A stretch of DNA of 64,000 bases, from IMG/VR virus record IMGVR_UViG_3300025121_000022; one strand, written 5' to 3'. The translations under genes and the position numbers were made by a program. This document shows positions 2,957 through 49,002 of this stretch, in pieces. Position 1 is the stretch's first letter. Each line of letters starts with the position of its first letter. The notes beneath the pieces were generated by a model that was not told the DNA's origin, made no database searches, and worked only from the letters and a program-made list of their open reading frames with translations. The DNA comes from an uncultured virus (IMG/VR IMGVR_UViG_3300025121_000022). Taxonomy: Duplodnaviria; Heunggongvirae; Uroviricota; Caudoviricetes.

Positions 2957-3358
2957 ATGAGAAGAGAACAAAACAGAGGAGAGCGGCTTTTTTGGGAGCT
3001 TTGCAAAAAAGGCAAAGACAAGGAAGCGGCTTTAATTCTGTCGATGGAGGTGTTCGATCCAAGGGCCGATAACAACTATGCCATCCGATATGCTTCGGGA
3101 AAAGGTCTTGTCGAGGTCGTGAAATTTCTTCTTTCCGACAAGAGGGTTAATCCGGTGGTTTTTGATAATTATGCCATCCGATGGGCTTCGGAAAACGGCC
3201 ATGTTGATGTCGTGAAGATTCTTCTTTCCGACAAGAGGGTCGACCCAACGGCCTATGAGAATCAGGCTATCCAATTGGCTTCGAAAAACGGCCATGTTGA
3301 GGTCGTGAGGCTTTTAAGAGATGTTGGATGTAAGATTGAGCTTGACAAAATCCCTTAA
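2957..3358 (+). CDS. Ankyrin-repeat protein
   Basis: About three 31-aa ankyrin repeats of the same family as locus 1. Confidence 0.9.
   Translation: MRREQNRGERLFWELCKKGKDKEAALILSMEVFDPRADNNYAIRYASGKGLVEVVKFLLSDKRVNPVVFDNYAIRWASENGHVDVVKILLSDKRVDPTAYENQAIQLASKNGHVEVVRLLRDVGCKIELDKIP
3055..3312 (+). repeat. 93-nt ankyrin-coding repeat, locus 2 (more diverged)
   Basis: Unit starts at 3104, 3197, 3290. Confidence 0.9.
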
Positions 3359-7188: not shown

Positions 7189-7683
7189 ATGTCTCAAAAA
7201 GATAACAAATGGTCCGTCCCTCAAGCTCCGCCTCCGTTGTTTTTTGGCGAGAAGGAAAGAAACTTCCAACGTCAATTAACCAACGAAATAATGGAGAAGA
7301 TGTTGGGCCAGGCGTGTTTGTATTATGCCATAGATGTTGAAAGAACAGACTTTCATCCGCTTTATGGCGAGGCAATAAATAAAACATTCCTTCCTCCTGT
7401 TCGAGTATTTGTTTTGTTGGAATGGGAAGATCCAGGCTATACAGGAGAAGACGAATTTGGCCCAGAAAGACGAACAAAAGTAACTGTACATTTCCACAAG
7501 AGGAGATTGACAGAAGACCAAAATATATTTGTTCGTGTTGGGGACTTTCTTGAGTATGGTGACAATTATTATGAGATCGTATCCCTGTCTGAACCAAAGC
7601 AACTGTTTGGACAGACAGATTATAAACTAGAGATAGCGGCAAAATGTGTCCGTGCTCGAAGTGGTGTGTTCAATGCTAAGTAA
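7189..7683 (+). CDS. Neck/head-closure protein (T4 gp14-like)
   Basis: HPLYGEA, VRVGDFLEY; synteny. Confidence 0.6.
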   Translation: MSQKDNKWSVPQAPPPLFFGEKERNFQRQLTNEIMEKMLGQACLYYAIDVERTDFHPLYGEAINKTFLPPVRVFVLLEWEDPGYTGEDEFGPERRTKVTVHFHKRRLTEDQNIFVRVGDFLEYGDNYYEIVSLSEPKQLFGQTDYKLEIAAKCVRARSGVFNAK

Positions 7684-8647
7684 TTTTTCTTTACATCTTG
7701 GGAAGATTATAAGAGAGGAAACGCAAAGAGTTCTTAAAGAGCGTAGAACTAAAAATAGAGAAGTTGTTTTTCACGGCACTTCCTCAAAGTTTTTAAATTC
7801 TATTTTAACCAACGGTTTGGTCCCAAACCCAAAAGAAAAAACTTGGGAAGACGACCCTCAAGCGGAAACTCATACTCCTTCGAGGCATAGCTATGGTGGA
7901 GCTTATTTCACAAATAACATTTTAACAGCAAGAATAGCTGGCCAGCAAACTGTAGCTAAATATGGAGGAAATAGGATCATTATTTCTGCTTTAGTACAAC
8001 CTAAGTCGGCATTACCAGATGAAGACGATATTAAAAGTATCTTGGGTTCAACAATATCAAAATCCGTGAGAAGTGGCGATTACTTTTATGGGACTGTTCA
8101 CGAACTAGAGAATATAAAAAAATATGAAGATTATCGCAAAGAAATTGTAGAAAATGTATTTAAGCAGCTTTTGGAAAAGTATAAAGAAGTTACGCAAGAC
8201 TATGGGAACAAGAAATTTGAAGAATATTTGAGAAAACACGAGGAACTAATTTTCAGAACAATTATTTCTTATTATGAAAGAATTCTTGCACACGAAAAGA
8301 GTAGATATCTTTATTACGACTACTCTGAAATACAAGAATTTGTAAAGTCTCCCCAAGAAGCAGAAAAAAACTATGCAGACAACATAAATAAATTTTCTAC
8401 CATTCTTAAAAAAATATCTTCTTCTCCAAGAAAATATACAGGAGATACGAACTTTAGAGTTATGGAGCCTGTTGGATATTCTGGAAGAAATAGGATTCTG
8501 TCTATTGTGGAAATTGAAGCTTCGACAGAGGATAAATATAAACCTGTTTACATAATTAGATATGGCGAACCACCAGAAGAGTTTTGGGAGCAAACGAGGG
8601 AAAAGTCGGGAAGTGATTTTGGGATAGTGGACAAGAGGGTAAGATAA
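7673..8647 (+). CDS. Putative ADP-ribosyltransferase-fold protein
   Basis: FHGTS...ILTNGLVP...GAYFT pattern of His-Tyr ART superfamily. Confidence 0.5.
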   Translation: MLSNFSLHLGKIIREETQRVLKERRTKNREVVFHGTSSKFLNSILTNGLVPNPKEKTWEDDPQAETHTPSRHSYGGAYFTNNILTARIAGQQTVAKYGGNRIIISALVQPKSALPDEDDIKSILGSTISKSVRSGDYFYGTVHELENIKKYEDYRKEIVENVFKQLLEKYKEVTQDYGNKKFEEYLRKHEELIFRTIISYYERILAHEKSRYLYYDYSEIQEFVKSPQEAEKNYADNINKFSTILKKISSSPRKYTGDTNFRVMEPVGYSGRNRILSIVEIEASTEDKYKPVYIIRYGEPPEEFWEQTREKSGSDFGIVDKRVR

Positions 8648-19124: not shown

Positions 19125-19952
19125 TTGACAGAGATAAAAAAAGACGAACAATACGGCGTATCTTCTGATGGAAGAAGTCTTAAGCTTACGGGGAATGACC
19201 AGATATCACTTCCCGAAGTAAAAGGAACGGATTTCCTTGAAAAGAGGAAAGGGTTAATTATCCAATTTCAGCATATTCCTTCGGGAGAAAGAGTAGATTT
19301 TAAAGCGTTTCTGACTGATTATCGCGATACACATACTGCTGAATGGGAAAAAAATAAGGTATATGGTCGTATGGATGCGATGAGCATATATAAAGGAACA
19401 GAACGAGCAGTTACAATTTCTTGGAATGTTCCTGCAGAAAGCGAAGAAGAAGCAAAATTAAATTTGTATAAAATTGGTGTTTTGAAAAGAATGGTTTATC
19501 CCGTTTATGAAGACGGACAGATTTCGGCACCTCCTCTGATGAAGGCGAAGTTTATTAACTTTTTGACAAACAACGAAGGGGACACCGGGGAAGAAAAAAA
19601 TACAACTCTTATCCCAAGTGGTGTTGTATGTTATATTGACGGAGCAATAGATTATGCTCCCGTTGTAGACGATGGGTTTTTCTTTGGCACTCTTGACTCA
19701 GAGGCGTTCCCAAAGACGATTTCTGTTTCTGTAATGCTTTATATTCTTCATACACATCTTCCAGGATGGACAAAGAAATCTTCGAAAGATGGGGCTCTTG
19801 TGTTTTCGGATGATAAGGTTGGGAATCGGTATCCGTTTGGATACATTGTTCTTCCAGAGGAAAGAACAGATAATGAAAAGTTTTCAACAGATTCTTCTGT
19901 TGGGGATAGTGTGAAAGAATCTCAAGAAGATGTTGTGTTGGGGAAGAAATAA
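19125..19952 (+). CDS. Baseplate tail-tube initiator/cap-like protein
   Basis: FKAFLTDY, VYGRMD, YP.Y...PPLM; follows tape measure. Confidence 0.55.
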   Translation: MTEIKKDEQYGVSSDGRSLKLTGNDQISLPEVKGTDFLEKRKGLIIQFQHIPSGERVDFKAFLTDYRDTHTAEWEKNKVYGRMDAMSIYKGTERAVTISWNVPAESEEEAKLNLYKIGVLKRMVYPVYEDGQISAPPLMKAKFINFLTNNEGDTGEEKNTTLIPSGVVCYIDGAIDYAPVVDDGFFFGTLDSEAFPKTISVSVMLYILHTHLPGWTKKSSKDGALVFSDDKVGNRYPFGYIVLPEERTDNEKFSTDSSVGDSVKESQEDVVLGKK

Positions 19953-21520
19953 TGAGATATGTAATTTTGGAAGAAGTTAAAGATGTTCTTTTGCTTGAAG
20001 ATAAAATTTCCTCTCTGAAAGAAAAGCTTCCCGAGCAAACAGAGCTAATCGACTTCTTTGCCTCGAAAGATCCGACGGGCAAACAGAAGTATTTGGAATG
20101 GGCTTTAAAAAGAACTCTTCAAGGCAACGAGAGCAAAGAGCTTGTTGCGGACGCATTTCTTAAGTTCGATCAGATTGGTCCTCGGCTGGAAAAGAAAGAC
20201 ATTAATCAATACGAAACGGCTGAAAGAGTCTTCGACGCAATCAACTATTACGAAACCGTGCAACGGAGCGAGAGATCGAAGGGGAAAGAGAAGAAGAAAA
20301 CCGCCTATAAAGCAGCCGAAAGTGGCGAAGGGGAACATTTCCAAACTCTTTATGAGGACGATGAATACATCATGATTCGTCTGCTGTCGAGGGAGGGCTC
20401 TTGTTATTGGGGTCGAGGAACCCCATGGTGTATTGCAGCCCAAGGACAGAACTATTTCTATCAATATACGATTAACGATGGGGTCGTCTTTTTTAACGTC
20501 ATAAACAAGACAGTTCCTTTGGAAGACGTCATAAGTAACAGGTTTTCAAGAATTAACTTTGCTGTTGTCGACCAAGGGGACGGTATCGAAACAACCGTAA
20601 CGACAGTAGAGAACGAATATCCTGGCGGCATATTTACGGGAAATCTTCTTCAAACCCCGAGAGAAGTAATAGAAGAGATCGGAGGTCAAGACCGATTTAA
20701 CAAATATGTTTCCTTGATGCAGAAGAACATGAAGGAAGTAACATATGACGATTGGCTAAAGTTTGTTGCTGCGGCTTTCAATAGAGATGAAGCGGAAGCG
20801 TATAATGTCGACGAACTCCGAAAGCTAATGAAGATTGTTCGAGCCGGGTATAATCCTTCCATCGAAATGATGGCGGAGATGTCGGAGGGTGGTATCCCCG
20901 AAGAGTTTTTAAAATATGAAAAACAGATTCAACGGCAAGGTTTGCTAAACAACAAGCTAAAAGATGCGGTAAAACAAGAAGAAACTCCCAACCTCGAATA
21001 TGTAAAAGATTTAATTCGGAAGGGTGCGAACGTAAGAACAAGTAACAACCTTGCCATCCGATGGGCTTCGGCAAAAGGCCATGTTGAGGTCGTGAAGATT
21101 CTTCTTTCCGACAAAAGGGTTGATCCAACGGCCGATGACAACTATGCCTTCCAATGGGCTTCGGAATACGGCCAGGTTGAGGTCGTGAAGATTCTTCTTT
21201 CCGACAAGAGGGTTGATCCAACGGCCGGTAACAACCTTGCCATCCGAGTGGCTTCGGCAAACGGCCATGTTGAGGTCGTGAAGATTCTTCTTTCCGACAA
21301 GAGGGTTGTTCCCTCGGCCGATGACAACGCTGCCATCCGATGGGCTTCGGCAAACGGCCATGTTGAGGTCGTGAAGATTCTTTATCAACATAACCCCGAC
21401 CACTATAATAAAGAAACACCAGGAATCGTCAGGAAATGGGATTTGGACAAGAAAGAAGAAATAAAAGAATCCTTTCTAAGAAGATTAATCAAAGAATCGT
21501 ATAAAGAGGTTGTTAAATAA
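19952..21520 (+). CDS. Two-part protein: N-terminal GTPWC-motif domain plus C-terminal ankyrin repeats
   Basis: DPTGKQKYLEW, KKDINQY, SCYWGRGTPWCI; about four ankyrin repeats from ~21030. Confidence 0.8.
   Translation: MRYVILEEVKDVLLLEDKISSLKEKLPEQTELIDFFASKDPTGKQKYLEWALKRTLQGNESKELVADAFLKFDQIGPRLEKKDINQYETAERVFDAINYYETVQRSERSKGKEKKKTAYKAAESGEGEHFQTLYEDDEYIMIRLLSREGSCYWGRGTPWCIAAQGQNYFYQYTINDGVVFFNVINKTVPLEDVISNRFSRINFAVVDQGDGIETTVTTVENEYPGGIFTGNLLQTPREVIEEIGGQDRFNKYVSLMQKNMKEVTYDDWLKFVAAAFNRDEAEAYNVDELRKLMKIVRAGYNPSIEMMAEMSEGGIPEEFLKYEKQIQRQGLLNNKLKDAVKQEETPNLEYVKDLIRKGANVRTSNNLAIRWASAKGHVEVVKILLSDKRVDPTADDNYAFQWASEYGQVEVVKILLSDKRVDPTAGNNLAIRVASANGHVEVVKILLSDKRVVPSADDNAAIRWASANGHVEVVKILYQHNPDHYNKETPGIVRKWDLDKKEEIKESFLRRLIKESYKEVVK
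21041..21382 (+). repeat. 93-nt ankyrin-coding repeat, locus 3
   Basis: Unit starts at 21077, 21170, 21263, 21356; framework near-identical to locus 1. Confidence 0.95.
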
Positions 21521-25164: not shown

Positions 25165-26358
25165 ATGAATTTCATAGACGTTCTTTTTTCTTCTAAAAAC
25201 GGTGAATCTGACGTTATTTACTGTGATGGTAGTATTAATGTATTATCTCTTTCAGAGTCCGGAAATCTTCCAGTCCCGAGTTTTTCTTGGTATCTATCGA
25301 GAGCCTTCCCTTGTGTTGACTCCGCCGCTTTGTACTGTTCCAATAAAAAGGTTGTCGACGTATGTTCGCAAAAGGAAAGGAGAGACTGGGAAAAGCTTTA
25401 TGAAACATGGGCCGCATATCAGTGTGCAATTAAAACAGCTAAAGTAAAAGTAACTTCTAGGAATTTTGTTGATTTATTTTCTTTTGACTTCTTGCTTGAG
25501 TTTGCCGCCAAAAGAACTGAAATAACAAAAAAGATTATTGATTCGACCGAAAGGCCAAAGAATTATAATTTGCTTAAACAGGCGTCGTTTCTATTAGAGG
25601 ACATAGCCTTTAAAAAACTTAACGTCTGTGCAGAAGCGGACGAAGACATAAAGAACGCTTTAAATAAAAGCCTACAGAGAATAGACTATAATCTTTTTGG
25701 TACTGTTACAGGGCGTCTGAGCGAGCGGCCGGGTTCTTTTCCGATACTTAGATTGCCCAAAAAAGAAAGACACATTCTTTGTCCCAACAATGATGTTTAT
25801 GTCGAATTGGACATAAATGGAGCTGAAATAAGAACTATTTTACATTTGTTTGGGAAAGAACAACCTCAACACGATATCCACCAATGGAATGCAGAAAACC
25901 TCTTTTGCGGTAAACTTTCCAGAGAAGAAGCAAAAAAGAAAGTTTTCTCTTGGCTGTATAACCCAGAAGATGCTTCCTTAAAGATATTTGACAGAGAAGA
26001 ACTAATAAAGAAGTATTGGGACGGGAAAAAGATTGAAACACCTTTGGGGCGAACTATAGAAATAGAGGATTTTCATTTTGTTTTTAATTATCTTATCCAA
26101 AGCACAACGAGTGATTTGTTTCTTGCGCAGGCACTAAAAGTTTGGGAATGTCTGAAAAAGAATAAGATGAGAAGCTATATCGCTTTCCTTATTCACGACT
26201 GTCTTGTATTAGATTTTGACAAGAATGAAAAACATAAAATAAGAGAGATAGAAGAAATTTTCTCTTCTACAGATTTTGGAAAGTATGTTATAAACCTCTC
26301 TATAGGGAAGAATTTTGGAGAGATGAGTAGGATTTTAGAACATGGTAAAAAAGTCTAG
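25165..26358 (+). CDS. Short family A DNA polymerase-like protein (no exonuclease domain evident)
   Basis: TVTGRLS, ELDINGAEIR, REEAKK, NYLIQST, IHD. Confidence 0.75.
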   Translation: MNFIDVLFSSKNGESDVIYCDGSINVLSLSESGNLPVPSFSWYLSRAFPCVDSAALYCSNKKVVDVCSQKERRDWEKLYETWAAYQCAIKTAKVKVTSRNFVDLFSFDFLLEFAAKRTEITKKIIDSTERPKNYNLLKQASFLLEDIAFKKLNVCAEADEDIKNALNKSLQRIDYNLFGTVTGRLSERPGSFPILRLPKKERHILCPNNDVYVELDINGAEIRTILHLFGKEQPQHDIHQWNAENLFCGKLSREEAKKKVFSWLYNPEDASLKIFDREELIKKYWDGKKIETPLGRTIEIEDFHFVFNYLIQSTTSDLFLAQALKVWECLKKNKMRSYIAFLIHDCLVLDFDKNEKHKIREIEEIFSSTDFGKYVINLSIGKNFGEMSRILEHGKKV

Positions 26359-37794: not shown

Positions 37795-38508
37795 ATGTAT
37801 GGAGAGTATGAAATTTTAGAAGAAAAGACCAAAGAAGAATTCGGCTATTCTACTGGTGACTTAAAAAAAGGCTCTCACAAACCTGTTTGGTTAAAGTGTC
37901 GAAGATGTGGGATTGAAGCGATAAAGGAATATAAATTTTCGCAAAGAAGGCACCTTTGCCCTTCTATACAAAATGGGGAAAAATGGTGTTATAAGTGTAA
38001 GAAATTTCTACCATTATTAGATTTCTCGAAAAACAGACATACCTTAACAGGGTACCAGAAGGTTTGTAAAGAGTGCTTTGCAAATTACAGTTGTGTTCAA
38101 GCAGGGTATAAAAAGAAGTCTTTTAAGATGAAAAGCGATTTAAAAGCTTACTTTAGACAAAGGATATCTTCAATATCTTTCTCGTGCAGGAGGAAAAACA
38201 TTATTTGTACTTTAGAAAAAGATGATATTTACGATTTATTCCTAAAACAAAAAGGAAAATGCTTTTACACAGGTAAAAGCATTAGTCGTAATTCTGGTAT
38301 ATTTCAACACGATAGTGTAAGCATAGACAGAATAGACCCAACAAAAGGATATACAAAAGAAAACATTGTTTTGTGTTGTTTCGCAATTAATTCTTTAAAA
38401 GGAAGTTTAAGCATAGAAGAATTTGTTTCTTTTGTAAAAGAAATAATACCTGGGCTAAGCTCTTTTATAAAAGAGTTAGACAGAAAGTACGAGAAAGATG
38501 AAGTATAA
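37795..38508 (+). CDS. HNH-like (His-Me finger) free-standing endonuclease
   Basis: KQKGKCFYTG...SIDRIDPTKGYTKENIVLC...N..K plus N-terminal CxxC fingers. Confidence 0.75.
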   Translation: MYGEYEILEEKTKEEFGYSTGDLKKGSHKPVWLKCRRCGIEAIKEYKFSQRRHLCPSIQNGEKWCYKCKKFLPLLDFSKNRHTLTGYQKVCKECFANYSCVQAGYKKKSFKMKSDLKAYFRQRISSISFSCRRKNIICTLEKDDIYDLFLKQKGKCFYTGKSISRNSGIFQHDSVSIDRIDPTKGYTKENIVLCCFAINSLKGSLSIEEFVSFVKEIIPGLSSFIKELDRKYEKDEV

Positions 38509-39234: not shown

Positions 39235-40356
39235 ATGAAGTTCTTTTTCTACTCAAGGCCCAGAAGACTTCCTCGCGCTAAAGCCTACAGAACGTTTGCA
39301 ACTATTGTAATAGGCTGCAATTTTCCTTCTATGCTGTGTGCTTCCCTTGCGTTGAAAAGACCTGGGATTGCGTATACAAGAAAAATAGATCCTCTTCCGT
39401 GGGAAGTCAGTAGACTTAAGTGGTTTAGAGAGAATGTTTTTTATACTTCTCTGTTTAACGGAGCTATGCTGAACGATAGCGCAGCAGATAAAATCGTTGT
39501 GGATGGAGAGAAACGGCTTGTCCATATAATATATGGCGGGCGAGAATATTCTTATCAATACAAGAAGTTGCTTGTTTATGACACACATAACGTGGAAGGA
39601 TTATCGAAATACAAAACAGGAGAAAGAAATCCAGAAGACGTTAATGTTTATTATTTTGACTGGGCTAATATGATAGACATACAGGGAGACTGGAAGTGCC
39701 ATTTTGGACAGCAGAGATTTTTTAAAAGAGAAGAGAAACTTTGTTCAATTATACATTTTCCTTTAGTTGGTCTTGGCAAGACTCCTGTTCTTAAGAAGCT
39801 TTCTCAGGCGTTTAGCAAGCCTTACACAAATATTATTTCTGTGTCTCGTCTTAAGCTTAAAGACATACAGGGAGAAGAATTGCGAAGATATTCCCAAGGA
39901 GAAGTGTTGGAATATCTTAGCTTTTTTATTAAAAACACTCTTGGGTTAGTTGGGAGAAAGCGGATGTGGAGATCAAAAGAGAAACAGCCCGAAGTCTCTT
40001 ATTATCCGATTTATTTGGATATGGTTAGAAGAGAAGAATACATAGAAGACCCCAACGTTTATTACGATCCAGAGAAGAGAATACAATTCTTTTTGAAAGA
40101 GGAAGATTATTATCCTCCTTGGCTTAAATATTTACAAAATACTCCAATTACAAATGCAGCTTCTTCTTATTTGTGGGATGCGATGAAGATGTGGAAAGGA
40201 AAGGCAGAAAGTGGAAACGACCTTTACTTCGAAGAATACGAAAGAGATGATGTCTGGAAAGATAAAAAAGATTCTGACCATTCGGGATCTGAGGGAGAAG
40301 GATCGGGATGTGACGAGGCCGGTGGGCTTTACGTCGACCGCGATAATTCCGATTAG
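39235..40356 (+). CDS. Hypothetical protein
   Basis: Long ORF; N-terminal IVIG strand. Confidence 0.6.
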   Translation: MKFFFYSRPRRLPRAKAYRTFATIVIGCNFPSMLCASLALKRPGIAYTRKIDPLPWEVSRLKWFRENVFYTSLFNGAMLNDSAADKIVVDGEKRLVHIIYGGREYSYQYKKLLVYDTHNVEGLSKYKTGERNPEDVNVYYFDWANMIDIQGDWKCHFGQQRFFKREEKLCSIIHFPLVGLGKTPVLKKLSQAFSKPYTNIISVSRLKLKDIQGEELRRYSQGEVLEYLSFFIKNTLGLVGRKRMWRSKEKQPEVSYYPIYLDMVRREEYIEDPNVYYDPEKRIQFFLKEEDYYPPWLKYLQNTPITNAASSYLWDAMKMWKGKAESGNDLYFEEYERDDVWKDKKDSDHSGSEGEGSGCDEAGGLYVDRDNSD

Positions 40357-41236
40357 CGGTGACTTTCGAAATACTTCTTTTTATTGGAATGATTTGTATA
40401 TCCCCGTCGGTAAAGGTCTTTTAGCTTTTGAGAGGACAGCATATGAGGCGGCTCTTTTGGGTGCAACTTCAATTTATGTTGTAGTAAACAATAAACAATA
40501 TATTCCCATACGAAATAGACTTGGGAATTGGATGTACTCTCCTGCTTTTGCTCGCAAGTATCTTTATCACAAGAACCTTTTAGAAGAAGGCAAAGGACAT
40601 GCGTTCCCAAACTTAAATTCTTTAAGGAAGAGAATCCCTATTTTTTATATTATCTCCGACTTCGAAGAGGAAGGAGTTAATACTCTGTTGTGGTCTACTT
40701 TAAAAGCGATGATATTGACAACAAAGATGTTTGAAACAATATCAGCATATGCTTTGCCGGATAAATATCTTGTAATGTTTCCTTATTCTGCAACCGATTT
40801 AGACTTTTTGAACGAAGTAAGAAAAACAGCTATGAGCTGGGAAGGTGGTAATATCTTCTTTGAGAGAGATGGGAAAACAATTTTAGACGGAGAGTTGTGC
40901 CCTTTTATAATAAGATACAACAGGTTTGTTGAGTTTGTTAAGGCATATTACTCTTCTGTCAATAAGAAAAAAAAAGAGTACGAGTCTCTTGAAAAAGCCC
41001 TTAAAGAAAACTTCTATAAGAAGATACAGTTTAAAGAGGTATTTGAGAATATTGCGCGACAGGAAGATGATATTTTCTTGACTCCCACTTGGTCCTATGA
41101 TATTACTCTGTGGGAAGGATATAGAAGCTTCTTGCTAGAAACAAAAGAGTTCCCCGAGCGAGAAGAGTTCCTTTCTAAAAAAGAATTCATTCCTCGTCAA
41201 ACCCTTCAGGCGATGGAGTTTTTAGGTAAAAAATAA
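40247..41236 (+). CDS. Sugar-nucleotidyltransferase-like protein (divergent); start uncertain
   Basis: AIIPISG...IPVG...EAALLGATSIYVV. Confidence 0.4.
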   Translation: MMSGKIKKILTIRDLREKDRDVTRPVGFTSTAIIPISGDFRNTSFYWNDLYIPVGKGLLAFERTAYEAALLGATSIYVVVNNKQYIPIRNRLGNWMYSPAFARKYLYHKNLLEEGKGHAFPNLNSLRKRIPIFYIISDFEEEGVNTLLWSTLKAMILTTKMFETISAYALPDKYLVMFPYSATDLDFLNEVRKTAMSWEGGNIFFERDGKTILDGELCPFIIRYNRFVEFVKAYYSSVNKKKKEYESLEKALKENFYKKIQFKEVFENIARQEDDIFLTPTWSYDITLWEGYRSFLLETKEFPEREEFLSKKEFIPRQTLQAMEFLGKK

Positions 41237-41238
41237 AC

Positions 41239-43119
41239 ATGGTAAAATTTGTAAATCTTCATTGCCACGATACGTTCTCGGTGTTTGACGGATTCGGTTA
41301 TCCCAAACAATTTATGGAAAGAGTCCACGAGACGGGGGGTGAAGCCCTCGCCATCACGAACCATGGTAACATGAACTCCATGGCCTACCAACTATTTGCC
41401 GCAGAAGAAATGAAAAAAGAGGGGAAGATAGTAAAACCAATATATGGAATTGAGGCGTATATTATTCCTTCTTTTAAGAAGTGGAGAACGGCATACGAAA
41501 CGGCCAAAGAGAACAAAGAATTAAAAAAGAAGAAAGAAGAAGAGATAAACGCAACGGTTATTGAAGACGATCTAAAGAGGTTTTCAAGGACAAAGAAGAC
41601 AGAAATTAATAAAAGAAGCCATATACTTCTTTTGGCTCAAAATCAAGACGGGCTTAAAAATCTATTTCAACTCGTCTACAACTCCTACAAGAGAGAAAAC
41701 TTCTATAGATACCCCAGAATAGATTACGATATGCTTCGTTCATATAACAAAGGCATTATTGCAACAAGTGCTTGTGTGGGCGGAGTTTATTCTTCTAACT
41801 TTTTTGATAATTACGAAAAGGGAACAGACTATATTCTTTTAGAGATGCGCAAGACAACGCAAGCTATGTTGGATATCTTTGAAGATAGATGGTACGGAGA
41901 ATTACAGTGGAATGACTTTGTTGAACAGCATGATTTAAACCAACTAATAATACAGCTTTCAGTTGAGATGGGGTTTAAGCTGGTTTCTACTGCTGACGCA
42001 CACTACCCAAGGCCCGAGTTGTGGAAAGATAGATTTCTTTACAAGAAGTTGGGTTGGTTAAACTCTAAAGACAGCGAGCAGGCAAAGCTACCAGAAACCG
42101 TAGAAGAAATCGGTTATGAGTTGTATCCAAAATCTGCAGAAGAAATGTGGAGAGATTATAAAAAATATTCTCTTAAACATAATTCTTTTTATGAAGATGA
42201 CACGATAGAAAAGAGTCTCGATAACACATATGACATTGCTATGAACAGGATAGAGAATGTCGATATGGACAGAAGCTATAAACTACCTTCCTCTGTTGTC
42301 CCCACTGGCCAAACTGAAGAAGGGGCTTTAGCAAGGAGGGCAGTGGCTGGTCTAAAGGCCAAGGGGCTGTATGAAAAGAAAGAATATGTAGACAGACTGA
42401 AACATGAGCTTAGGGTTGTAAAAGACCGAGGATATTGTAAATATTTTCTGGCAATGAAAAAGATAATAGACAAAAGCAGGAATTTTTGTCTGACTGGACC
42501 AGGGCGGGGCTCTGCTGGAGGTTCTTTAATTGCGTATGTGTTGAACATAACACATGTCGACCCTATTAAATATGGTCTTTTGTTTGAAAGATTTTTATCC
42601 GAAGGTTCGAGTCCCGACATAGATTGTCTTTGGAGCGGGCACGAAGTACGAGTTTCTGGGGGATATAAAAAACTTCGAGATGTTCTAATAGGAGATGTTG
42701 TTATAAACGAGTTTGGAGAGAACTCCGTGGTTTCTGCTGTTTTTAGTAGAAATGTGCGGCCGAAAGAAAAAGTATTTTCAATAGTAGTACAACAAGTAGA
42801 AGAAGATATTTTGGGTATTATTATTGCGGGCGAAACGCACAAGTTTATTCTTTCAAGTGACAGGGTTACTAAGACAAAAGAATTAAAAATTGGTGATTCT
42901 TTGAAATCTATTGGCGGGGAAGTAGTGGTGCTGGAAATAGAAAAGATGTCAAAACAAAAAAAAGAAAGAATAGCTTTAACCGACATTTCTTTATTGGGAG
43001 AAACAAAAAGTTTTCAAATAGTTCCATTGGATGTAATAGAAGTTTTTAATACTATTACCGAAGAAAGAAAGAGATTTGTACTTGAGATAGACAACAAGAG
43101 GAAACATGGAAATCATTAA
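41239..43119 (+). CDS. dnaE: DNA polymerase III alpha, N-terminal part, fused to N-intein
   Basis: PHP domain (NLHCH, TNHG, GIEAY, DAHY), GRGSAGGS, FERFL, PDID then CLWSG. Confidence 0.92.
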   Translation: MVKFVNLHCHDTFSVFDGFGYPKQFMERVHETGGEALAITNHGNMNSMAYQLFAAEEMKKEGKIVKPIYGIEAYIIPSFKKWRTAYETAKENKELKKKKEEEINATVIEDDLKRFSRTKKTEINKRSHILLLAQNQDGLKNLFQLVYNSYKRENFYRYPRIDYDMLRSYNKGIIATSACVGGVYSSNFFDNYEKGTDYILLEMRKTTQAMLDIFEDRWYGELQWNDFVEQHDLNQLIIQLSVEMGFKLVSTADAHYPRPELWKDRFLYKKLGWLNSKDSEQAKLPETVEEIGYELYPKSAEEMWRDYKKYSLKHNSFYEDDTIEKSLDNTYDIAMNRIENVDMDRSYKLPSSVVPTGQTEEGALARRAVAGLKAKGLYEKKEYVDRLKHELRVVKDRGYCKYFLAMKKIIDKSRNFCLTGPGRGSAGGSLIAYVLNITHVDPIKYGLLFERFLSEGSSPDIDCLWSGHEVRVSGGYKKLRDVLIGDVVINEFGENSVVSAVFSRNVRPKEKVFSIVVQQVEEDILGIIIAGETHKFILSSDRVTKTKELKIGDSLKSIGGEVVVLEIEKMSKQKKERIALTDISLLGETKSFQIVPLDVIEVFNTITEERKRFVLEIDNKRKHGNH

Positions 43120-43165
43120 ACATCACTCTTTTAAAGAGAGTTATAAGACTGTTATTGTTCACAAC
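42625..43165 (+). other. Split intein: IntN 42625-43116 (164 aa), IntC 43106-43165 (20 aa)
   Basis: Cys1 block A, GETH block B, block F-like LTDISLLGETKSF in ORF1; VIVHN then Cys+1 in ORF2. Confidence 0.85.
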
Positions 43166-45187
43166 TGCGATTTTTCTCGTGCAGCAGAGTTTAAGACTTT
43201 TCTTATTGAAGAGTGGGGAGAAAAGAGCGCAACTCTTATTTCAAACTATGGCACATTTCACTTGAAGTCTCTTGTTAAGGACATATCAAAATTTTATAAT
43301 GTATCTTTTCAAGAAGTTAATGAAGTAACAACAAAAATGGTCGACGAGGCTTTACCAAAAGCCAAACAGGATCATGAGCAAGTTGCCGGAGTTTACGAAC
43401 CTACTTATGAAGAAGTTAAGGCATATAGTCCTTCTTTCCAAGCCTTTTTAAGAAAATATCCCTCTGTAGCATCTCACATAGAAAATTTACAAGGCATGGT
43501 GAAGTCTATTGGACAACATGCGGCGGGACTTGTTTGGTCTGATAACTTACATGAAAAAATGCCTCTTATTAGCGCCAAGGGTTCTTTCCAAAGTCCTTGG
43601 TCTGAAGGGCAAGCGGTACGGCATCTAGAACCTTTGGGGTTTATTAAATTTGATATTTTAGGATTGCAAACTTTAACAATTATAGAAGATACTATCAAAC
43701 ATATTCTTCACAAAAGAAAACTCTCTTGTGGGATAAAAGAAATTATAGAGTTTTATAATAGAAACTTGCACCCCGACGTAATCAACTTCGACGATCAGAA
43801 AGTATGGGAAACTGTTTTCCACAAGAAGAAGAATTTAAATTTAGGTATTTTCCAATTTTCTAACGACGGCGCGCAATCCTTTTGCGTGAAAGTTAAACCC
43901 ACATCTATTGAGGATTTGTCTGCTGTAACTTCGATATATCGGCCGGGACCTCTGGGTTCGAACATAGACAAGAAGTATTTAAAAGCGAAAAGGCATCCAG
44001 AAACCGTTACCTACCTTCATCCTTGTGTGGAGCCTGTTTTAAAAAGTACCTATGGCTTTGTTATTTATCAAGAGCAAATTGCTAAGTTGGCTGTTGCAAT
44101 AGGGAAAGACGTTTCTCTAATGGAAGGAAACTCTCTTAGAAAACTCTTGACAAAAAAGGGTCTCATAGGGAACAACGCAGAAAAGAAAGAGAAGATTTAT
44201 AAGAAGTTTGTCGAGGGTGGTCTTGAAAAGGGGATTGAAGGTAATGCTTTAGAAGAATTATGGAAGTCCTTGGAATTATTCAACAATTATGGATTTAATT
44301 TGTCCCACAGTTGCGGATATTCCATCCTTTCTTATCAGTGTGCTTGGCTTTTTACTTATTATCAAAGCGAATGGGTTGCCGCCTTCCTCAACAGCGAGCC
44401 AGAAAAAACAAAAGCAAAAGCGATATCTGATGCTAAATCTATTGGGTTCACTATGGCTTCTGTGGACATAAATAAGTCCTCTTTATATGATTGGGATGTG
44501 TCTCCAGACAACAAAAAAGAACTTATTCAACCTCTGTTCTCTTTGCTGGGGATGGGCAAGACCGCTGTAGAACAAATCTCCTATTGTCGTCCCTACAATA
44601 AGATTGAAGATGTGCTTTTTAAAGAAGACATTTGGGGCAAGAAGCTAAATAAAAAGTATCTAGATGTCTTGACAAGAAGCGGCGCATTAGATAGTCTTAT
44701 GGACGAAAGGTTTACTGGCGACAAGCATTTCTGGTCATGTGTGGCGGTTATTCGTCCTAAAGACCAAGAAGACTTTGAAGAAAATATTAAATTGTATTCT
44801 CCAGAAGGCTCCTTCGCGGAAAAAGAAAGACTTATTTATCGCTCTCAGTTAACAGGAGTTTATCCTGTTGACCAAATTGTTTCACCTAAAGACGTAAAAG
44901 CTTTAAAGTCTCTTGGCGCCGTTCCGGTGAGCGAATGGGAAGTGGGCAAATATGTTTGGTTTGTATTAAAGAGCGTAGAGTTTAAGCAAACCTTAGCAAA
45001 CAAGAAAGATTATGCTGTTCTTACGGTGGTTGATAATACGGGTGAAGAGAACAAAATTAAGTGCTGGAATGTGAAAGACTATTATCCTCTTGTTGAAAAC
45101 TCAGCTTATGTTGGCGTCGTTACCAAAGATGAGAAGTGGGGTTTTTCTACGAACAAGAAGATAAATGAAGCATTTAGAAAGCTATAA
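43106..45187 (+). CDS. dnaE: C-intein plus DNA polymerase III alpha, C-terminal part
   Basis: HN/CDF, GQHAAG, KFDILGL, GIFQF, RPGP, IYQEQ, YGFNLSHS. Confidence 0.92.
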   Translation: MEIIKHHSFKESYKTVIVHNCDFSRAAEFKTFLIEEWGEKSATLISNYGTFHLKSLVKDISKFYNVSFQEVNEVTTKMVDEALPKAKQDHEQVAGVYEPTYEEVKAYSPSFQAFLRKYPSVASHIENLQGMVKSIGQHAAGLVWSDNLHEKMPLISAKGSFQSPWSEGQAVRHLEPLGFIKFDILGLQTLTIIEDTIKHILHKRKLSCGIKEIIEFYNRNLHPDVINFDDQKVWETVFHKKKNLNLGIFQFSNDGAQSFCVKVKPTSIEDLSAVTSIYRPGPLGSNIDKKYLKAKRHPETVTYLHPCVEPVLKSTYGFVIYQEQIAKLAVAIGKDVSLMEGNSLRKLLTKKGLIGNNAEKKEKIYKKFVEGGLEKGIEGNALEELWKSLELFNNYGFNLSHSCGYSILSYQCAWLFTYYQSEWVAAFLNSEPEKTKAKAISDAKSIGFTMASVDINKSSLYDWDVSPDNKKELIQPLFSLLGMGKTAVEQISYCRPYNKIEDVLFKEDIWGKKLNKKYLDVLTRSGALDSLMDERFTGDKHFWSCVAVIRPKDQEDFEENIKLYSPEGSFAEKERLIYRSQLTGVYPVDQIVSPKDVKALKSLGAVPVSEWEVGKYVWFVLKSVEFKQTLANKKDYAVLTVVDNTGEENKIKCWNVKDYYPLVENSAYVGVVTKDEKWGFSTNKKINEAFRKL

Positions 45188-45189
45188 CT

Positions 45190-45882
45190 ATGCCCAAAAG
45201 ATATCAATTATTTGTCGATGAGGTAATAAGACGCAGAAAAGAAAGTTCCAACGCTTATTATTCTCGAAGAGAAAAAGAAAGAGACCCTAACAACTTTATA
45301 CATGACGATTTCATGTATATGGATACAAGAGTTCCGGGAATAGCCGTTTCCTTTCAGAAGTTTGTAAGGTTTTTTCTTTCTCTTGACAGATTAGACTTGT
45401 CTCATAATTGGGTTTGGCTTACGGTGATGGACTTAATTATAGAAGAAGACATTGAGTTTATTAAGTTTCTAAGAGATTACGCTACAAAGAAATATAGTCA
45501 GAGCTATACGAGAAGAGGGAACTTCTTTGATTTGCCTTCTATTAGAAAGGGTGTTCTTACTAAAAATAAAAACCCTTTTCGTAAGATTTATAATTACAGA
45601 CACCCAGACGTGTTTTATCCAAACGAAAGAAAATTAAAGGAAATAGAAGAACAACTGGAAAAAAGAAAAGAGGTAGTCAATTATTTGGTTGGAAACATAC
45701 AGCAAGAAGACGAAGTGGACGATTCTTTTCCTACTGTTTATGAAGATAAAGTAGAAGATTATTTAAATTTTGATGAATTACTAAAAGACTTCGAAGAGGA
45801 CGAAGAGGTTGCTTCTTTGACTTTAGAAGACTTAGAAAAGGCGGATGAAAATGATGATGCAGACGAGGAAAAAGATCAATAA
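45190..45882 (+). CDS. Hypothetical protein with acidic tail
   Basis: ORF follows dnaE. Confidence 0.6.
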   Translation: MPKRYQLFVDEVIRRRKESSNAYYSRREKERDPNNFIHDDFMYMDTRVPGIAVSFQKFVRFFLSLDRLDLSHNWVWLTVMDLIIEEDIEFIKFLRDYATKKYSQSYTRRGNFFDLPSIRKGVLTKNKNPFRKIYNYRHPDVFYPNERKLKEIEEQLEKRKEVVNYLVGNIQQEDEVDDSFPTVYEDKVEDYLNFDELLKDFEEDEEVASLTLEDLEKADENDDADEEKDQ

Positions 45883-47635: not shown

Positions 47636-47775
47636 TCCCCTTCGAGACTTAAACTATGAACTTCTTAGTTAACACGGCTGCTCGATTCCTGCCCATGAGA
47701 GAGTTTCGTTCTGGCCGTAAGGCCAGAACCAGAGCTTTCTTGACAGCAGGCTATCCCCGCCAGGGCGGCGGTTCT
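47636..47775 (-). ncRNA. Putative TnpB omegaRNA (reRNA) scaffold
   Basis: Overlaps tnpB 3' end; hairpin TTCTGGCC-GTAA-GGCCAGAA; this is the segment retained in the mini-copy. Confidence 0.6.
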
Positions 47776-48900
47776 AAGATTAATGGCTGCGTTGATGTCT
47801 CGGTCGTGGACAACCCCGCAGGCTTCGCAAACCCATTCTCGGACAGACAAAGGCAACGGCTCTTCTCGTCTTGTTCTGCAGTCGGAACACAGCTTGGAAG
47901 AGGGGAACCAGCGGTCTGCAACAACGATTTCGCTGCCGGCAAGCGGAGCCTTATACGTGAGCTGACGCCTAATTTCCGACAGGGAAGCATCCGCAATCGA
48001 CTTGGTAAGATGGTGATTTGCCATCATTCCCTTGACGTTCAAGTCCTCGATTCCAATCCGACGGAAGTCTCGGACCAGCCGAGCGGTAAGCTTATGCGTT
48101 ACGTCTTTGCGGATGTTGGAAATCCGTTCATGCAGCCGACTAAGCTTCGTTTTAGTCTTCTGCCAATTTCTTCCTCCTATGACGCGACGAGACATTTCCT
48201 TGTTGAGTCGTCGCAGTCGGGTTTCATGAGCACGCAGAATGCGTGGAGCCTCGACCCGTTCTCCAGTGGAAAACACGGCAAGGTCTCGAAGTCCGAGGTC
48301 CACTCCAACCGTTTCTTGGGTTTCGCAGCGGTGAGGATAAGACCAGGAGTCGGAGACTTGAACTTGAATCGAGACGTACCAATGACCGGCATGTTTCGTA
48401 AAGTGAGCGGACAAGATTTTGCCGGGGAATCTTATCTCTTGTCGGGTGCGGACCCAGCCGAGTTTGGGAATTTTAACTCTTCGGCCGTCAAAACGAAGGG
48501 CTCGGCCCTCGATGGCAAAGGCTGCTTTGTTCCGTTTCTTCGACTTGAAACGGGGATAACCGGGCTTTTGGCCAGATTTAACACGACGAAAGAAGTTGGA
48601 GAAAGCATTGCCGAGGTTGGACAGCGCCGTAGAGGGAACAGCCCACGGCAGCTTGATCATCCAGGGAAATTCGGTAGTTTTACAGGCATTCAGTTCAGAG
48701 CTAAGACTAACCCACGACGGTTTTCCACCAGCCTCGTACTGAGCTTTCCAGCGGTCCAATCCCCAATTATAAACGAAACGAGAAGTTCCAGCGCAACGTT
48801 CGAAAAAGGTTGTCTGGACGTTATTAAGATCCAGCCGAATGCGTTGGCCGAGGATAGTTATGAGGCTTTTGTCGGAAGCTGTAGAATGACGTTTCGGCAC
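47665..48900 (-). CDS. tnpB: TnpB RNA-guided endonuclease
   Basis: YNWGL, PRFKSK, RuvC GVDLG / IEDL / DRDINAA, Zn finger CSDC-CEAC. Confidence 0.95.
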   Translation of the reverse strand: MPKRHSTASDKSLITILGQRIRLDLNNVQTTFFERCAGTSRFVYNWGLDRWKAQYEAGGKPSWVSLSSELNACKTTEFPWMIKLPWAVPSTALSNLGNAFSNFFRRVKSGQKPGYPRFKSKKRNKAAFAIEGRALRFDGRRVKIPKLGWVRTRQEIRFPGKILSAHFTKHAGHWYVSIQVQVSDSWSYPHRCETQETVGVDLGLRDLAVFSTGERVEAPRILRAHETRLRRLNKEMSRRVIGGRNWQKTKTKLSRLHERISNIRKDVTHKLTARLVRDFRRIGIEDLNVKGMMANHHLTKSIADASLSEIRRQLTYKAPLAGSEIVVADRWFPSSKLCSDCRTRREEPLPLSVREWVCEACGVVHDRDINAAINLRTAALAGIACCQESSGSGLTARTKLSHGQESSSRVN

Positions 48901-49002
48901 ACTATAAATATAGCACACGAAGTGAAATATGTTGATTTTTTTGTAAATTCGTTGTTTCGTCTATCAGCAGTCGTGTTAACTAAGGAGTTCGTGGTTTAAG
49001 TC

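Follow-up and report, generated by a model that had tools for sequence, protein, structure and literature searches.

A predicted natural split intein with an S11-type break divides DnaE in an uncultured T4-like phage

We analysed 64,000 nucleotides of DNA from an uncultured virus of the Caudoviricetes (IMG/VR IMGVR_UViG_3300025121_000022; the whole of this stretch is called the window below), in which the gene for the DNA polymerase DnaE is divided over two open reading frames (ORFs) that each carry part of a putative intein (Table 1). The window is a segment of a T4-like myophage, with genes for portal, terminase, sheath, tube, gp32, UvsX, helicase and RNR; three identical viral records of 56–79 kb are 28–38% complete, which would put the genome near 200 kb. 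A preliminary description of this DNA had named two ORFs that overlap by 14 nt, the second in the +1 frame, a TAG at 43088 and a series of motifs, all of which were present. Logan contigs from two of four runs (X2 at depth 45, X5 at depth 35) spanned the whole stretch with 0 differing letters and 0 gaps, although both runs may be the source of the window DNA; the remaining two did not cover the junction.

Table 1. Features of the split dnaE locus (window positions).
Feature	Position	Strand	Description
ORF1	41239-43119	+	626 aa; DnaE N-extein, N-intein and tail, TAA end
DnaE N-extein	41239..42624	+	462 aa; PHP domain and first palm half, PDID at end; Pfam PHP 1.9e-29, DNA_pol3_alpha 5.7e-29
N-intein core	42625..43026	+	134 aa; Cys1, block B His72, block F Asp120, Phe130, Pro134; predicted HINT fold minus last strand
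Variable N-intein tail and TAA stop	43027..43119	+	30 aa after Pro134
TAG upstream, ORF2 frame	43088..43090	+	limits window C-intein to at most 25 residues for any start
Shine-Dalgarno (SD)-like AGAGGA	43097..43102	+	GAGG 4 nt 5' of ORF2 ATG
ORF2	43106-45187	+	693 aa; C-intein and DnaE C-extein; +1 frame relative to ORF1
C-intein	43106..43165	+	20 aa; H-S-F head (Ser 13 residues from end), predicted last beta-strand, His-Asn
DnaE C-extein	43166..45187	+	673 aa; Cys+1, Asp (= D405), remaining palm, fingers, YGFN, HhH; Pfam finger 3.8e-35, HHH_6 2.4e-08; NCBIfam polc 1.2e-93

The two exteins together account for an entire DnaE. Positions of the TIGR00594 profile continue over the break, 1–403 in ORF1 and 409–919 in ORF2 (Pfam/NCBIfam), and both exteins are full length by profile, so that removal of the intein would restore the host protein, as had been proposed; PDID[YF]D stood at the site in 79 of 79 non-self viral loci. 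The YxFN motif was indeed uninterrupted (YGFN at 44288 in ORF2), and KFDILG at 43646–43663 is presumably the D555 motif. Asp460 and Asp462 of the N-extein correspond to E. coli D401 and D403, and query residue 74, the Ile of PDID, aligned with residue 402 in the solved Pol III alpha chains 2hnh and 5fku. Since the catalytic residues of Pol III alpha are D401, D403 and D555, and D405 is invariant in DnaE (PMC3919608), the earlier statement that PDxDxD holds catalytic aspartates agrees with this alignment.

The N-intein opens with Cys1 at 42625 (PDID/CLWSG, the slash marking the junction), and in the usual intein block names its block B carries His72 at 42838 (GETH), while the block F segment LTDISLLGETKSF carries Asp120 at 42982 and Phe130 at 43012. 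ORF2 starts with MEIIKHHSFKESYKTVIVHN followed by CDF. Of the residues usual in class-1 inteins, Cys1, the block B His, the block F Asp, His-Asn and Cys+1 were found, and Cys1, His72 and Asp120 were invariant in nine of nine N-inteins; this set points to class-1 chemistry. Class-3 inteins use a block F Cys as nucleophile and have no Cys or Ser at residue 1; this class was rejected on sequence (F4 is Asp, residue 1 is Cys), though the top fold scores include class-3 DnaB inteins. The Pfam PT-HINT match to the window intein was below cut-off, and NCBIfam recognised no intein in the window ORFs.

To place the break in the intein fold, we used an AlphaFold2 model of the 164-aa N-part (predicted local distance difference test score, pLDDT, 78). 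Structural alignments made with VIA gave top rows with Z 11.8–13.4 (best Z 13.4, root-mean-square deviation 2.0, 118 aligned), and Foldseek matched the model to the HINT domains 6bs8 (E 2e-7) and 6qaz (E 4e-7), the fold of class-1 inteins. Residues 1–134/135 of the N-part mapped to 1–121 of 128 in 6qaz, 1–448 of 454 in 1dq3 and 1–531 of 537 in 2cw7, indicating that the N-part lacks only the final 6–8 residues of solved inteins. In the family profile described below, the best PDB sequence match was fused gp41-1 (positions 6–120 of 128, E 1.1e-12), an alignment that covers 29 of the 37 residues in the C-intein of gp41-1 itself (Dassa supplement), and a conserved I-V-P past the block F Phe corresponds to the turn into the last strand of canonical inteins. 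By this model the window intein has S11 geometry, with the break between beta11 and beta12 and a C-fragment that would hold only the last strand. Other known split geometries did not fit: in the canonical S0 split the break is at the endonuclease site ahead of block F, which belongs to a C-intein of 33–54 aa, whereas here the break lies past block F and the C-intein of 15–21 aa in the family lacks it, and the natural S1/S2 atypical splits have N-inteins of 15–37 aa, compared with 164 aa in the window. The proposal of the preliminary description, a natural split that falls between blocks F and G and leaves a 20-aa C-intein, is supported by structure and, as follows, by relatives whose halves lie up to 2.1 kb apart and in other frames.

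A homologue search with ORF1 residues 400–626 returned nine relatives (P0002–P0010; query coverage 66–91%). A profile of nine N-inteins was then compared with 1.84 billion protein representatives, and among the best 150 matches 52 started at D[IV]D/C; the other 98 were without this site pattern. Forty-three of the 52 ended 2–58 residues past block F (one being the window's own protein), four ran on contiguously to His-Asn (P0124, P0154, P0159 and P0178) and five could not be classified by pattern. In DNA, the site pattern gave 38 loci, comprising 24 family N-inteins with a stop, three canonical splits, two contig-end cuts and nine chance matches, with no contiguous family member. A short C-intein was found within the retrieved DNA at 16 of the 24 loci, 13 of them distinct, which answers the earlier proposal to look for the same split in relatives. 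Two further site patterns added nine loci: one split member (L206, with a C-intein of 17 aa at 2 kb from its N-half), two contiguous inteins of another allele and six chance matches.

The family N-inteins measure 130–187 aa, block F included, with a pairwise identity of 22–48% (median 30%) among distinct relatives. For the C-inteins of the 13 distinct relatives and the window (n = 14), with starts picked among candidate codons, the length is 15–21 aa; Ser is found at -13 in 13, His at -14 in nine, Phe at -12 in nine and Ser at -3 in ten, and His-Asn followed by Cys, Ser or Thr at +1 is present in all 14. When a profile was built from the 13 relatives' C-inteins only, the window 15-mer ranked first of 69,415 six-frame 15-mers (17.4 bits, the next 6.6), a match beyond chance. 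The halves of the relatives lie between 30 nt and 2.1 kb apart, and a TAA in the N-intein frame precedes the C-intein in 13 of 13 distinct relatives, ruling out TGA or TAG recoding as the cause of the split. The residues between block F and the stop, correctly described as about 30 in the window (Table 1), are probably dispensable, as the family tails extend 2–58 aa past the block F P-F motif; at locus L197 a TAA closes the frame two residues past PF.

Several other searches returned no further member. The first 75 residues of ORF2 retrieved 26 proteins, the non-self ones covering 72–75% of the query, with no separate C-half apparent; 50,697 records of annotated phages gave one weak partial match; all four site-pattern matches in species genomes were due to chance; and alignment-based locus searches found no conserved stretch, those led by the extein giving intein-free genes. 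We also considered that the H-S-F head might be duplicated in the N-intein tail, as a target-site duplication would leave it. This was unsupported: the profile comparison was negative, and over 37 tails a score as high as the observed one came up in 32 of 500 shuffles, although P0006 and P0008 have a VHSY match.

Other intein arrangements were seen at the same site. L164, L175 and L182 are canonical split alleles at PDID/C, with N-inteins of 95–96 aa and C-inteins of 43 aa that bear block F, and L208/L209 hold a contiguous mini-intein of about 140 aa with a short F-G loop; both share insertion point and Cys1 with the short-C-intein family, but are canonically split or contiguous. L208/L209 have the same C-extein start as L170, a member of the family, which points to allele exchange. 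At L206 (from about 3.2 kb upstream of Cys1 to 4 kb downstream of it), as in P0143, P0145, P0156, P0161, P0165, P0169 and P0128, DnaE is spread over some five ORFs with several inteins. The middle piece of this type has an extein of just 6–7 residues, in which both catalytic Asp lie, flanked by a canonical C-intein and a family N-intein, and is a putative natural cassette for tandem trans-splicing.

The preliminary description had reported no endonuclease between the halves. This is true of the window, where the halves overlap, but an endonuclease-like gene lies between them in 11 of the 13 distinct relatives. At nine loci the intervening ORF is on the same strand (305–376 aa), overlapping the end of the N-half in eight of nine and the start of the C-half in nine of nine. 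Common to these nine ORFs are DUF7487, a part that resembles a zinc ribbon and the motif E/Q-x-x-G-D-[YF]-[WF]-H; we call them Vsr-like because of this motif and of weak Vsr, DUF559 or MTES_1575 matches below cut-off; phrog_3339, 'homing endonuclease', was matched in eight of nine. The same gene type lies between the halves at L186:2293-3301, where it is interrupted by six in-frame TGA, one at the Trp of GDFWH, and by no other internal stop, so this phage probably reads TGA as Trp. At L167 the intervening endonuclease is antisense (phrog_3339, 7e-66). Antisense endonuclease genes right behind the N-intein were observed at L167:943-2562, L172:1121-2431 and L179:1136-2278, and belong to a different family from the same-strand ones. 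The two remaining arrangements lack such a gene. At L165 the halves are 2.1 kb apart with five small unrelated ORFs between them, one of which is kinase-like and one methyltransferase-like by eye, an arrangement that is a step toward fully unlinked split genes, and at L170 only 30 nt separate the halves, the C-half being in frame behind TGA, TGA and TAA. The endonuclease of L193 had no match in the three partial records (28–38% complete) of the window phage. The window is thus an endonuclease-less derivative of a Dassa-type fractured gene, similar to gp41-7, from which the endonuclease has been lost.

Taken together, the locus very probably encodes a class-1 intein that is naturally split at an S11-type position and trans-splices the two halves of DnaE. 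In the mechanism that we propose, the N- and C-precursors would be translated separately, and ORF2 initiation may be aided by coupling across the 14-nt overlap. The N-intein would fold nearly completely and leave a slot, which the last strand of the C-intein would fill, with a further contact for docking made by the conserved H-S-F head. An acyl shift at Cys1, transfer to Cys+1 and cyclisation of Asn would then release a 1135-aa polymerase with P-D-I-D-C-D restored. The preliminary description inferred that replication depends on trans-splicing; the activity of the window DnaE should depend on it, but the phage might use host Pol III instead. The window also has a 397-aa ORF at 25165–26358 on the plus strand that weakly resembles family A polymerases (Pfam 1.4e-10 over 59 residues; phrog_17 2.7e-13), possibly a second polymerase or a primer-removal enzyme.

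Some observations weigh against trans-splicing by such an intein. Blocks B and F are present as described, but in the window Gly replaces the usual block B Thr and Lys occupies the block F His position; each of the usual residues is found in 12 of 47 family members. The block B Thr and the block F His are common, not universal, in class-1 inteins. In the AlphaFold2 model of the contiguous P0124, residues 132–159 are below pLDDT 50 and neither the last strand nor the H-S-F head is placed, probably due to sparse alignment rows over the last 28 residues. Moreover, the census protein ends may partly be contig ends, the retrieved DNA shows no partner C-half at eight of the 24 loci, and the C-intein starts are the analyst's choice, bounded by upstream stops at 17–39 aa in the relatives. 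Finally, the AGAGGA noted earlier is indeed present ahead of ORF2, but its GAGG is 4 nt from the ATG. At the 29 starts checked, 13 further SD-like matches were seen, 12 of them at a spacing of 6–12 nt; 4 nt is short for this phage and makes the motif weak evidence of a ribosome-binding site.

The missing Thr and His would also suit halves that associate without ligation, with cleavage only, as in bacterial intein-like (BIL) domains, or as a clamp holding a two-chain polymerase, or else a window copy in decay. BIL domains and class-3 inteins were among the top fold matches, and just four of 14 engineered S11 splits showed splicing (PMC3620165). We nevertheless consider this unlikely, given that Cys1 is matched by His-Asn and by Cys, Ser or Thr at +1 in all 14 C-inteins, whereas intein-free phage alleles have Tyr or Phe at that position in 150 of 154 cases, so that the +1 nucleophile accompanies the intein; the break also falls within the catalytic strand (D403/404/D405), where a chain end would hardly be tolerated, and each extein has its full length. 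A programmed +1 frameshift within 43091–43119, giving a single cis-splicing precursor with a long F-G loop, appears slightly less probable still. The +1 frame of ORF2, an overlap that includes AAG AGG AAA, the close SD and the existence of contiguous family members, by which a cis form is structurally allowed, are all compatible with it, but the relatives have the same short C-intein behind its own Met 0.8–2.1 kb away, in all three frames and with many stops between, the C-half of L170 is in frame but behind three stops, and the window Met is placed like the family starts (20 aa; range 15–21). Least credible, to the point of being nearly negligible, is a one-base assembly or sequencing error that splits a contiguous mini-intein: the two spanning contigs and the three identical viral records may share one source and are then not independent, yet the contigs agree without differences or gaps at depth 45 and 35, and the same break recurs at 24 other loci, where inserts of kilobases cannot be indel errors. 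As the relatives have their halves in other frames, kilobases apart and with TAA stops between, neither a frameshift nor an assembly error, the two findings that the preliminary description said would overturn its proposal, can explain the family.

The short-C-intein family was compared with known systems. The cyanobacterial split DnaE inteins (Ssp, Npu) share the host protein, class 1 and the fold (4kl5, Z 9.9), but they occupy another insertion site, the YxFN motif, which is intact here, and have a canonical break. The fractured genes of Dassa (gp41-1, NrdJ-1, IMPDH-1 and DnaE-1/2/3, with gp41-7 lacking the endonuclease; PMC2677866, 2009) are alike in that a phage replication enzyme is encoded in two same-strand ORFs, fused to an N- and then a C-intein, with an endonuclease gene between them that is occasionally lost, as in gp41-7. 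The window has the two same-strand ORFs and lacks the endonuclease that 11 of 13 distinct relatives have. Their N-inteins, however, are 88–105 aa and their C-inteins 33–54 aa with block F on the C-intein, unlike the N-inteins of 130–187 aa with block F and C-inteins of 15–21 aa described here, and no N- or C-intein in the available part of Dassa's Figure S1 has the short-C layout. The engineered S11 split inteins (Ssp GyrB and DnaX, Ter DnaE-3 and ThyX; Lin et al. 2013, PMC3620165) share the break between beta11 and beta12 and a nearly complete fold on an N-intein of 127–165 aa, but they are made in the laboratory, with C-inteins of 6–7 aa and rates of about 2e-4 per s, whereas the natural C-inteins have 9–15 extra residues with the H-S-F head. 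The natural atypical splits (AceL-TerL, GOS-TerL, VidaL and PolB16 OarG) are likewise of phage or metagenomic origin and have one fragment that can be synthesised as a peptide; theirs is a short N-intein of 15–37 aa at the S1/S2 sites, so the present family is their mirror image. In the sections available, such natural splits are described only with short N-halves (PMC13014065, 2026; PMC11923092, 2025; PMC10189870, 2023), S11 is listed as synthetic (PMC11766414) and a preprint on odd endonucleases reports no such split (bioRxiv 10.1101/2025.01.02.630785). We found no natural short C-intein in the split-intein literature searched, a search that took in neither subscription journals nor patents, InBase or the second supplement file of Dassa, all of which could bear on this point. 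In the literature covered, the S11-type layout is described only for laboratory-made inteins.

With regard to the history of the cassette, a tree of 55 intein rows, rooted only at the midpoint, placed the four contiguous members in four places, two of them on long branches, and their monophyly was rejected (approximately unbiased test, p-AU 0.000215). P0124 fell within a 100/96 clade together with six split members, and the end of its loop resembles a C-intein, with Ser at -13. The simpler reading of these polyphyletic contiguous members is that, once the endonuclease had been lost, the halves were re-fused repeatedly; a split that arose several times at the one site is a possible alternative, and the choice of direction depends on unrooted trees with long branches. 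In an extein tree of 24 intein-bearing and 23 intein-free rows (18 of the 23 retained from 154 after thinning at 68% identity), the two kinds were interleaved with at least four changes forced, the intein-bearing P0002 being sister to the intein-free L084. The window's nearest exteins are intein-free with Tyr or Phe at +1, as are 150 of the 154 intein-free phage alleles, and the GC content at third codon positions is 0.26 in the window N-intein against 0.39 and 0.36 in the exteins. Both features are consistent with a cassette that was acquired together with its +1 Cys, with the proviso that sampling is uneven.

From these trees and the intervening genes we infer that the insertion of an endonuclease gene took place in the F-G turn rather than at the usual site, that the cassette then spread among phage dnaE genes, and that loss of the endonuclease left either adjacent halves (the window, L170) or re-fused inteins (P0124, P0154, P0159, P0178). 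We give an even chance to a broader proposal, by which a mobile phage intein lineage was born when a homing endonuclease gene inserted into the hairpin that precedes the last strand, where such insertions were held to be impossible, and the H-S-F docking head evolved on the C-intein of 15–21 residues. By this proposal the pairs would be naturally optimised, fast and mutually orthogonal ligases with short C-inteins, the split would be open to reversal and have been undone independently several times, and the broken cassette would still home between phage polymerases.

Short fragments allow synthetic peptides to be spliced onto proteins. The natural atypical splits with a short N-half label the N-terminus, and C-terminal labelling, according to the available sources, relies on slow engineered S11 splits, of which four of 14 worked. 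The present family offers at least 14 natural pairs, 22–48% identical among those compared, with C-halves of 15–21 aa and Cys, Ser or Thr at +1. A free-standing endonuclease gene at a second intein site also differs from the view that the endonuclease insertion site of inteins is extremely conserved (PMC6801210). Since one family occurs in three states (with the endonuclease, without it and re-fused), the fractured-gene model of split-intein origin becomes testable in both directions.

Elsewhere in the window, dnaE is flanked on the plus strand (39235–41236 and 45190–45882) by three ORFs of 373, 341 and 230 aa with no Pfam or PHROG match. An IS605-type TnpB/Cas12f-like gene lies at a strand switch (47665–48918, minus strand) with a 447-aa open antisense frame, and has a close copy at the start of L211, a contig of the same phage; outside the window, L211:1117-3279 carries a contiguous intein in a 720-aa ORF that by eye is GDP-mannose dehydratase-like. 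On the plus strand of the window there are also a free-standing endonuclease VII/HNH-like gene behind dUTPase (37795–38508), a weak PARP-like match (7646–8647) and two ankyrin-repeat proteins (2957–3358 and 19952–21520).

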